Shown in pieces: positions 31,337-31,450 of a stretch of 64,000 nt of DNA. The position numbers and the translations under genes were made by a program. This stretch comes from Gemmataceae bacterium (lineage in GTDB: Bacteria > Planctomycetota > Planctomycetia > Gemmatales > Gemmataceae): assembly GCA_046350275.1 (NCBI GenBank), contig JAXMAS010000005.1:13224-77223 (forward strand). Reading direction: 5' to 3'. Position 1 is the stretch's first letter. Each line of letters starts with the position of its first letter. The notes beneath the pieces are model-generated. The model ran no database searches, had not been told where the DNA came from, and was given only the letters and a program-made list of their open reading frames with translations.

Positions 31337-31430
31337 TCAGGAGTCAGGGGTCAGGAGTCAGGGATCAGGAGTCAGAAATCCTTCGACGGCTTGCTGACTC
31401 CTGACTCCTGACTCCTGACTCCTGACTCCT
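31337..31430 (+). repeat. Heptamer-repeat inverted repeat: (GGAGTCA-like)x5, 18-nt loop, (TGACTCC)x5, forming a stem-loop of about 35 bp immediately upstream of the SD and ATG of the SPFH gene
   Basis: Read directly: caggagtcaggggtcaggagtcagggatcaggagtcag ... ctgactcctgactcctgactcctgactcctgactcct. It is followed by tcacaATGGAGGTtcgcccaATG. Confidence 0.7.
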
Positions 31431-31450
31431 TCACAATGGAGGTTCGCCCA

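Follow-up and report, generated by a model that had tools for sequence, protein, structure and literature searches.

A hairpin built of heptamers stands immediately upstream of the gene for a membrane protein, slipin (SPFH or Band_7 family), in a 64-kb stretch of DNA from a Gemmataceae bacterium (contig JAXMAS010000005.1, positions 13,224 to 77,223; the whole stretch is called the window below). Five GGAGTCA-type units face five TGACTCC units across a short spacer, and the hairpin they form is real and far beyond chance expectation. The account that seems to fit it best, held here with modest confidence, is that it is a labile heptanucleotide simple-sequence repeat of palindromic form, which probably arose by slippage, is lodged in a permissive linker of a structured leader and acts at most as a generic stem-loop. 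The original prediction, made from the letters of the window, had suggested that Shine-Dalgarno (SD)-like and anti-SD-like motifs in the two arms control translation; that specific mechanism is not supported.

Tandem Repeats Finder assigns a period of 7 to both arms (Table 1), with 5.6 copies (81% matches) upstream and 5.3 copies (100%) downstream. Folded as RNA, the main helix runs from A31339 to T31430 with 36 pairs, one 1x1 mismatch and an 18-nt loop; the terminal bases of the spacer between the arms are themselves paired, the loop contains a weak inner stem, and on the + strand two pairs are G.U. The region 31320-31460 reaches -85.4 kcal/mol, compared with -48.6 +/- 4.4 for 200 dinucleotide shuffles (z -8.4, 0/200). 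Five units facing five TGACTCC units in a helix, put at about 35 bp, is what the original prediction had described, and its expectation of a stable predicted structure is borne out. The opposite strand of the region folds equally well (-83.8 kcal/mol), and the isolated hairpin gives -75.0 kcal/mol on the + strand and -73.4 on the - strand. Within the 404-nt leader fold (z -14.4 for the leader) it is a self-contained domain. At the level of primary sequence, a two-unit pattern allowing up to two mismatches has 11 matches in the window, where 0.52 are expected (0/100 shuffles). The position is non-coding, between a tRNA-like gene with its following leader and the slipin start, and the only open reading frames (ORFs) crossing it are short and spurious. 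Because L122, an independent assembly of a related species, has a diverged copy, the hairpin is not an assembly artefact. A search of Rfam 15, at the gathering thresholds and at E<=1, passed only tRNA; the hairpin drew sub-threshold matches to eukaryotic miRNA precursors, as a generic long hairpin would.

Table 1. Features in and around the slipin leader (window coordinates, except where a locus is named)
Feature	Position	Strand	Basis
tRNA-like element	30986-31061	+	Rfam tRNA 54 bits; ARAGORN anticodon ACT; 4-bp acceptor stem
Small hairpin next to rod	~31088-31105	+	fold
Conserved long-range RNA rod, ~75 bp	31115-31327	+	fold and covariation
T-tract closing rod	31328-31331	+	ortholog comparison, folds
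Degenerate sixth unit GCAATCA, directly 5' of 5' arm	31333-31339	+	sequence
Complete hairpin, 36 bp	31339-31430	+	RNA fold, full-leader fold
5' arm, five heptamers GGAGTCA / GGGGTCA / GGAGTCA / GGGATCA / GGAGTCA	31340-31374	+	sequence, Tandem Repeats Finder, pattern scan
Spacer GAAATCCTTCGACGGCTTGC between arms, 20 nt	31375-31394	+	sequence, fold
3' arm, TGACTCC x5, all perfect	31395-31429	+	sequence, Tandem Repeats Finder, pattern scan
TTCACAAT, between 3' arm and SD	31430-31437	+	sequence
Genuine SD GGAGG, outside hairpin	31438-31442	+	sequence, ortholog conservation, leader fold
Slipin / SPFH (Band_7) gene, 366 aa	31451-32551	+	ORF, domain match, protein identity
Other copies of the tRNA-like scaffold	L123:2603-2675, L141:2038-2109, L136:2017-2091, L151:2049-2123, L333-L337, others		

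The window contains one clear copy of the hairpin, plus one weak or degenerate candidate on the + strand at 10774-10824, which reads GGAGTCC GGAGTCC ... TGACCCC ... TGACCCC TGACTTC, with the arms in the same order as in the main hairpin. It lies between a gene that ends at 10774, with its TAG stop codon overlapping the first unit, and an ExbD gene whose ATG is at 10833. As a second hairpin copy it was rejected, since it is similar in sequence but folds no better than its shuffles (z -1.2); its sequence is possibly that of a decayed copy.

The DNA upstream of slipin orthologs, close and distant, was compared, with relatedness expressed as protein identity to the window slipin. The linker between the T-tract and the SD proved to be variable, a "hairpin slot" that is filled differently from species to species. 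L122 (82%) has the same GGAGTCA/TGACTCC hairpin, with about four units per arm, several mismatches and a loop that sequence comparison shows to be unrelated to that in the window (-50 kcal/mol, z -5.8). L121 (84%) has no hairpin, just the conserved T-tract, then 13 nt, then the SD. A 30-bp palindrome that is not a repeat is found in L124 and L125 (78%), and three CCCCTCCCC...GGGGAGGGG palindromes, resembling repetitive extragenic palindromic (REP) sequences, in L126 (78%); L123 (77%) has a small unrelated hairpin and L336 (73%) a hairpin of CACAGAG/CTCTGTG units at -90 kcal/mol. Among more distant orthologs, L141 has a CAGTGTT/AACACTG heptamer hairpin ending 2 nt before AGGAGG, L147 an ATTGGCT/ATGACCA heptamer hairpin, and L143 and L144 a direct AATCTTC array. 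Judging from these sequences, the slot between T-tract and ribosome binding site repeatedly hosts self-complementary sequence of any kind.

Copy number therefore does vary among close relatives, as the original prediction had supposed for a simple-sequence repeat: there are 5+5 units in the window, about 4+4 in L122 and none in L121. Its expectation for orthologous leaders held in part, the array being retained in L122 but missing in L121 and replaced by unrelated hairpins in others. Because the slot hosts the same hairpin, other hairpins or none across orthologs, the heptamer hairpin is not a conserved regulator, and a covarying riboregulator shared by orthologs is not what is seen. The L121 and L122 proteins are mutually closest (87.7%), each being 82-84% identical to the window protein; the hairpin is for this reason most likely ancestral to the three species and lost in L121.

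The block GGAGGTT-CGCCC-ATG is kept in slipin orthologs and therefore fixes the true ribosome binding site and start. The ATG at 31451 is 20 nt from the hairpin, and the helix ends 7 nt before the GGAGG of the SPFH gene, as originally described. It had been suggested further that the SD-like repeats are ribosome decoys or stand-by sites and that the anti-SD-like repeats mask the true SD, giving translational control. The heptamer unit does contain GGAG and CUCC, the hairpin is only 7 nt from the SD, and the last CUCC would be able to pair with GGAG if the 5' arm were missing; nevertheless this is very improbable. In the RNA fold every one of the five CUCCU motifs is taken up in pairing with the GGAG-type arm, the arms being mutually saturated at -75 kcal/mol, and because they pair with each other the SD-like and anti-SD-like motifs would be unavailable and the true SD free. 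The fold is not that of an SD-sequestering riboregulator: the helix ends at 31430, and GGAGG is essentially unpaired in both the minimum free energy (MFE) and the centroid structure of the full leader. Without the 5' arm, the 3' arm and SD together fold at -8.1 kcal/mol (z +2), worse than shuffles. A run of five AGGAG motifs was claimed for the upstream arm, and three of the five units do retain it, but the other two have AGGGG and AGGGA. Nor is the unit special. In viral contigs of the IMG/VR collection, (TGACTCC)3 occurs in 35 stretches and three composition-matched permutations of it in 40, 48 and 11, that is, about as often, so TGACTCC was set aside as a special unit and the SD-like unit cannot be called enriched over permuted ones. 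The slots of orthologs, moreover, hold hairpins that are not SD-like, or none.

The SD does tend to be paired in short local folds, but with the conserved CUUU tract and not with an arm. In the window this upstream tract is its likeliest partner (P 0.43-0.66), with the heptamer hairpin nested in the loop; in L121, without the heptamer hairpin, T-tract and SD form an 8-bp hairpin of their own (P 0.6-0.8). That the T-tract masks the SD, in the way known from fourU elements, is no more than a weak idea: such masking appears only in short local folds (window, L121 and L122) and is missing from the full-leader MFE and centroid structures and from distant orthologs. That T-tract:SD pairing around the slot would explain a tolerance of only self-folding inserts there is only an idea drawn from these models.

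The slipin hairpin is one of a widespread and rapidly changing class of heptamer-repeat hairpins. A scan of genome contigs for (TGACTCC)3 found at least 120 loci among the matches listed, in cyanobacteria, Acidobacteriota, Phycisphaerae, Gemmatimonadales, Verrucomicrobia, Chloroflexales, Bacteroidota and others, so that the arrays expected elsewhere by the original prediction do exist; the genome that the window comes from is not among the loci listed. Many of the high-GC loci among them have a GGAGTCA array, a spacer and a TGACTCC array, which is the architecture of the window. The listed loci contain 444 period-7 arrays and at most 53 of any other period. A planctomycete set, 354 kb of loci chosen solely by slipin homology, likewise has period 7 in 54 of 125 tandem arrays, and over all loci compared (L001-L337) there are 1097 period-7 arrays, with no more than 148 for any other period. 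Of the 48 distinct period-7 arrays in the slipin-homology loci, 24 are organized as 12 inverted pairs. Each arm of such a pair has 3-5.6 units, most loops measure 17-24 nt, and the fold energies range from -32 to -75 kcal/mol, the strongest being that of the window hairpin. Units and loops differ from locus to locus, and 48 canonical unit types were found among inverted pairs. With its head-to-tail copies, its non-coding site, its variation among relatives and the period-7 excess of its lineage, the window element is a member of a known but poorly understood kind of heptamer repeat.

In filamentous cyanobacteria, TGACTCC arrays are flanked on the 3' side by one or other of two recurring non-coding motifs, AAATAATTAAGATTAATATCATACAC... 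and A(G/C)CCCTAAC..AAGACTTTTT.AGCAA.CCCTAAT, and on the 5' side by pyrimidine heptamers of CTTCTTT type. The loci concerned are L071, L076, L109, L113 (at two sites) and L115, and also L005, L028, L040, L054, L058, L061, L078 and L084. Conserved flanking genes were considered as a sign of a mobile element at these sites and rejected, since the genes differ and only the short non-coding motif recurs; because the neighboring genes differ, the arrays look like composite dispersed repeats.

The history favored here for the slipin hairpin would begin with two arrays of 7-nt units in inverted orientation, of the type known as long simple-sequence repeats (LSSRs) or short tandemly repeated repetitive (STRR) sequences, which are predicted to fold into one long hairpin as RNA or as single-stranded DNA. 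Each arm may have grown by replication slippage, as the literature proposes for heptamer repeats, with arms that are still complementary being retained or repaired. The site observed is a short, species-variable linker between the T-tract that ends the leader and the conserved slipin ribosome binding site. The distribution among relatives is likewise observed, and the likely order of events is that the hairpin was ancestral to the three close species and lost in one. If it affects expression, it would do so as any very stable stem-loop of the 5' leader might, with no ribosome mimicry; a structural spacer or insulator, an RNase III substrate, or a barrier to exonucleases or read-through are possible roles.

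Several points weigh against this account. It presumes that the hairpin is part of the slipin mRNA and is transcribed through, and that slippage and arm matching took place. The pairing of the SD with the CUUU tract in local folds leaves some translational role conceivable for the surrounding region, and the recurrence of different hairpins in one slot may mean that a hairpin there is useful. Enrichment at tRNA ends, at gene 3' ends and in convergent spacers, together with a G-rich 5' arm, suggests selection or a directed mechanism over neutral slippage. These regularities come from the wider class. In the planctomycete set, half of the arrays (24 of 48) have the end of a tRNA gene no more than 25 nt away, whereas only 3% of bases lie within 60 nt of one, and in tRNA clusters heptamer arrays or hairpins fill the spacers, beginning 3-13 nt from the tRNA (L195:590-2610, L152:60-1310, L136:300-510, L155 and L196). 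Among 90 TGACTCC arrays that lack an exact partner, 69 have their closest gene boundary 3' of the TGACTCC strand and 21 have it on the other side (p = 4e-7); within 10 nt, there are 23 boundaries on the 3' side and three on the other. Eighteen of these 23 are stop codons, where the mRNA would read stop-GGAGUCA..., and five are start codons. Convergent, co-directional and divergent spacers carry arrays in 27/54/13 cases, where about 16/53/25 would be expected from spacer length. Arrays that seem "unpaired" often have a degenerate complement upstream: the upstream duplex is the stronger in 79 cases and the other in 32, and duplexes below -25 kcal/mol number 39 and 8. Arm order is equally regular. 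Among close exact inverted pairs of the four units tested, the purine-rich array comes first in 36:0, and a wider comparison, of 104 distinct inverted heptamer pairs representing 48 unit types, found more G than C in the 5' arm for 86 of 102 pairs and for 38 of 48 units (p = 6e-5). Examples of this polarity are seen at L007:7236-7336, L119:2888-2981 and L152:1223-1300. In viral contigs, TGACTCC polarity measured by duplex energy was not clearly replicated (30 vs 24). Slipin genes were also seen directly downstream of planctomycete tRNA clusters with heptamer-filled spacers.

Such patterns match the expectation for transcript-boundary hairpins, and for that reason a functional boundary element, comparable to REP sequences and bacterial interspersed mosaic elements (BIMEs) or to a U-tract-independent terminator and selected to stop, process or stabilize transcripts, retains substantial weight as the main rival, although on its own it is doubtful. 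At the slipin gene it would insulate the ribosome binding site from the upstream tRNA-like and leader RNA, or serve as an RNase III or RNase E site making the mature mRNA 5' end. The hairpins in inter-tRNA spacers 3-13 nt from tRNA ends (L195, L152 and L136), the arrays abutting stop codons, their over-representation in convergent and under-representation in divergent spacers, the arm polarity, which implies a single-strand constraint, and the recurrence of different hairpins in one slot all speak for it. The locus itself fits less well. A canonical intrinsic terminator is not what is found, the 36-bp stem and 18-nt loop being followed by the interval listed in Table 1 and no U-tract, and a consensus scan found no terminator-like site in 30900-32700 and no canonical promoter around the hairpin. 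A strong terminator with the ATG just 20 nt away would silence the gene, and L121 manages without a hairpin. Fold energies also lack a consistent transcribed-strand bias: eight of 13 hairpins favor one strand and five the other, with -75.0 vs -73.4 in the window, and RNA-level selection argued from G.U strand asymmetry was set aside as uninformative. A broader form of the idea, rather unlikely but worth stating, is that hairpins with 3-6 heptamers per arm make up a distinct and widespread class of intergenic element, with a dedicated mechanism or a shared selected function, of which the slipin-leader hairpin would be one working copy. The class would range over Planctomycetota, Acidobacteriota, Gemmatimonadota, Verrucomicrobiota, cyanobacteria and contigs in the IMG/VR viral collection. 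Its rules would be a period of 7 irrespective of the unit, richness in G of the 5' arm and in C of the 3' arm, and tight placement at tRNA ends and at stop and start codons. If this were true, the function in common might for instance be U-tract-independent termination in both directions, or the processing of mRNA precursors and those of tRNA clusters.

A mobile palindromic element of REP type or resembling a miniature inverted-repeat transposable element (MITE), spread by a transposase and inserted beside the leader T-tract, would account for the precise presence or absence relative to L121, for the unrelated palindromes at the same site in relatives, for the contigs of relatives (L122, L124 and L125) that often break at the hairpin site, as they do at repeats, and for an arm order that is constant across phyla. 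It is improbable all the same. Comparison with the empty site of L121 shows no duplication at the junctions, as a MITE would be expected to leave, and there is no GTAG/CGTC tag and no conserved terminus. The window holds a single clear copy plus one degenerate candidate, and units and loops that vary by locus are a better fit to local growth than to copying. Still a little less probable is the reading that the array is bound by a protein recognizing 7-nt units in DNA or RNA, or that it is a phase-variable or methylation-sensitive switch. The regular 7-nt spacing, the GANTC sites (eight within 90 nt, where the original prediction had given ten GAGTC/GACTC sites) and, for heptamers close to start codons, the speculation in the literature and the weak effects seen with reporters (PMC4679880; bioRxiv 10.1101/2022.06.06.494920) are in its favor. 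Since dozens of unrelated units (48 canonical) share the architecture, however, dozens of proteins would be needed, and the hairpin form makes the sites double-stranded with each other. There is no sign of a methylation or restriction switch: the window has 113 GAGTC/GACTC sites against 156 +/- 12 in dinucleotide shuffles, a mild to moderate depletion, and GAGTC is frequent outside the hairpin, where 105 of these sites lie. As for phase variation, a change of one heptamer in a 5' leader cannot shift a reading frame, and the repeat is outside both the ORF and any -35/-10 spacer.

The leader upstream of the labile repeat is of a different character. It includes a tRNA-like element, a conserved tRNA-Lys-like scaffold present in most planctomycete slipin orthologs, 290-500 nt upstream of the start and on the same strand. 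Its acceptor stem is just 4 bp (GGGT/ACCC), it often has C33, and its anticodon drifts from species to species (ACT, CTT, TTT, TTA, ATT, GTT, CAT, GAT, AAG, TCA and others), including some not normally used in bacteria: ACT in the window, and ATT, TTA, TCA and AAG elsewhere. Its sequence suggests an RNA domain that resembles tRNA, and not a tRNA that serves in decoding. The rod that follows is supported by covariation. In eight sequences, 91% of its cells are paired, compared with 80% after shuffling and 38-43% with slid partners, and 54 pairs have changed on both sides, compared with 24 when shuffled (0/500 shuffles reach 54) and 6-19 with slid partners. Seventeen of 23 ortholog leaders fold with z <= -3, and the rod has no match in Rfam. 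Sequence comparison thus indicates a structured leader with a tRNA-like domain, supported by covariation and hitherto undescribed, upstream of slipin genes across Planctomycetota. It may be a more interesting regulatory object than the heptamer hairpin. The gene that it precedes encodes a protein 100% identical to a "slipin family protein" on a 425-kb contig of a Gemmataceae metagenome-assembled genome, and the protein cluster consists of that single member.

Elsewhere in the window there are four other strong intergenic inverted repeats, all non-periodic, at 15815-15877, 15904-15951, 46669-46710 and 61926-62022, with arms of 17-28 nt that are 94-96% complementary; by eye, the 5' arm has G>C in all four. 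The last is just upstream of a cluster of three tRNA genes (62064-62290). A 42-nt tandem repeat of about three copies (82% matches) at 15038-15183 lies inside the ORF 14835-15587 (- strand), a heuristic call and not an annotation, which from its sequence probably encodes a repeat-containing protein.

The single locus is of little weight in itself, although it is a corrective to the appealing but unsupported notion that a series of SD-like and anti-SD-like motifs has to signal a ribosome switch. It also offers an entry point to heptanucleotide repeats in general, for which no function or mechanism is agreed upon, although in many bacteria no other long simple repeat is as common. The planctomycete loci show heptamers mostly organized as matched hairpins that crowd tRNA genes and gene ends and obey a strand-composition polarity.

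In the searchable literature no paper was found to contain the string of a TGACTCC array, and none to describe hairpins of this kind in Planctomycetes. Among the nearest known systems are other heptamer repeats. As cited in later papers, heptanucleotides outnumber all other long simple repeats in many bacteria, and their origin has been proposed to lie in polymerase slippage (Mrazek, 2007, via PMC4679880 and PMC4692102). The window element resembles these LSSRs (Mrazek et al., 2007) in its tandem 7-nt units, present in few to tens of copies, in being intergenic and variable among relatives, and in the dominance of the period. LSSRs and STRRs are, however, mainly direct arrays (in Burkholderia, Xanthomonas, actinobacteria and cyanobacteria), whereas the window has a matched inverted pair, in Planctomycetota. 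The GGGAATC and GGGGA(C/T)T repeats of Xanthomonas and Nostoc (PMC4692102) are also intergenic heptamers with extensive length and sequence variation among close relatives, and in Xanthomonas some of them are paired in inverted orientation, with the potential to form stem-loops or cruciforms pointed out (Rehm et al., 2015, PMC4692102); they are prone to G-quadruplex formation and were studied as such, while the unit here does not form G-quadruplexes and the inverted pair is the rule. TAACTGA repeats of marine Beggiatoaceae, cyanobacteria and Bacteroidetes are likewise CTGA-containing heptamers a few nt upstream of starts in unrelated phyla. In Beggiatoaceae they directly precede start codons, and a role in translation has been put forward, though not proven (MacGregor, 2015, PMC4679880), with S1, Csp and CsrA suggested as readers (PMC4679880). 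They differ in having 169 direct sets and one inverted, with 2-6 copies, whereas here the start-adjacent array is the 3' arm of a hairpin. Reading by proteins has also been proposed for heptamers in Nostoc, and those near the recF and recO starts had weak reporter effects (bioRxiv 10.1101/2022.06.06.494920).

REPs and BIMEs are similar to the heptamer class: they too are intergenic palindromes, are located at gene ends and can fold into stable RNA stem-loops, and the heptamer class is likewise enriched at gene 3' ends. However, REPs are 20-40 bp, non-periodic and conserved in sequence, occur in hundreds of copies, carry GTAG/CGTC tags and are mobilized by REP-associated tyrosine transposases (RAYTs), none of which is seen here: in 64 kb there are one copy and a weak candidate, without a tag, and the units differ between loci. 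RNA elements that mask the SD include the fourU and ROSE (repression of heat shock gene expression) thermometers and translational operators. The slipin leader shares with them a structured 5' leader directly upstream of the SD, and L121 has its 8-bp T-tract:SD hairpin, but the heptamer hairpin excludes the SD, and neither the MFE nor the centroid structure of the full leader shows the U-tract:SD pairing, which is unconserved in distant orthologs. Cyanobacterial STRR heptamers were reportedly described by Mazel and co-workers in 1990. Another parallel is stem P6b of the Nostoc tRNA-Leu(UAA) intron, where Costa and co-workers are said to have found, in 2002, degenerate heptamers on both arms of a hairpin and to have ascribed its size variation to slipped-strand mispairing. 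That hairpin is inside a cyanobacterial group I intron, whereas the hairpin of the window is in the predicted leader of a planctomycete mRNA.

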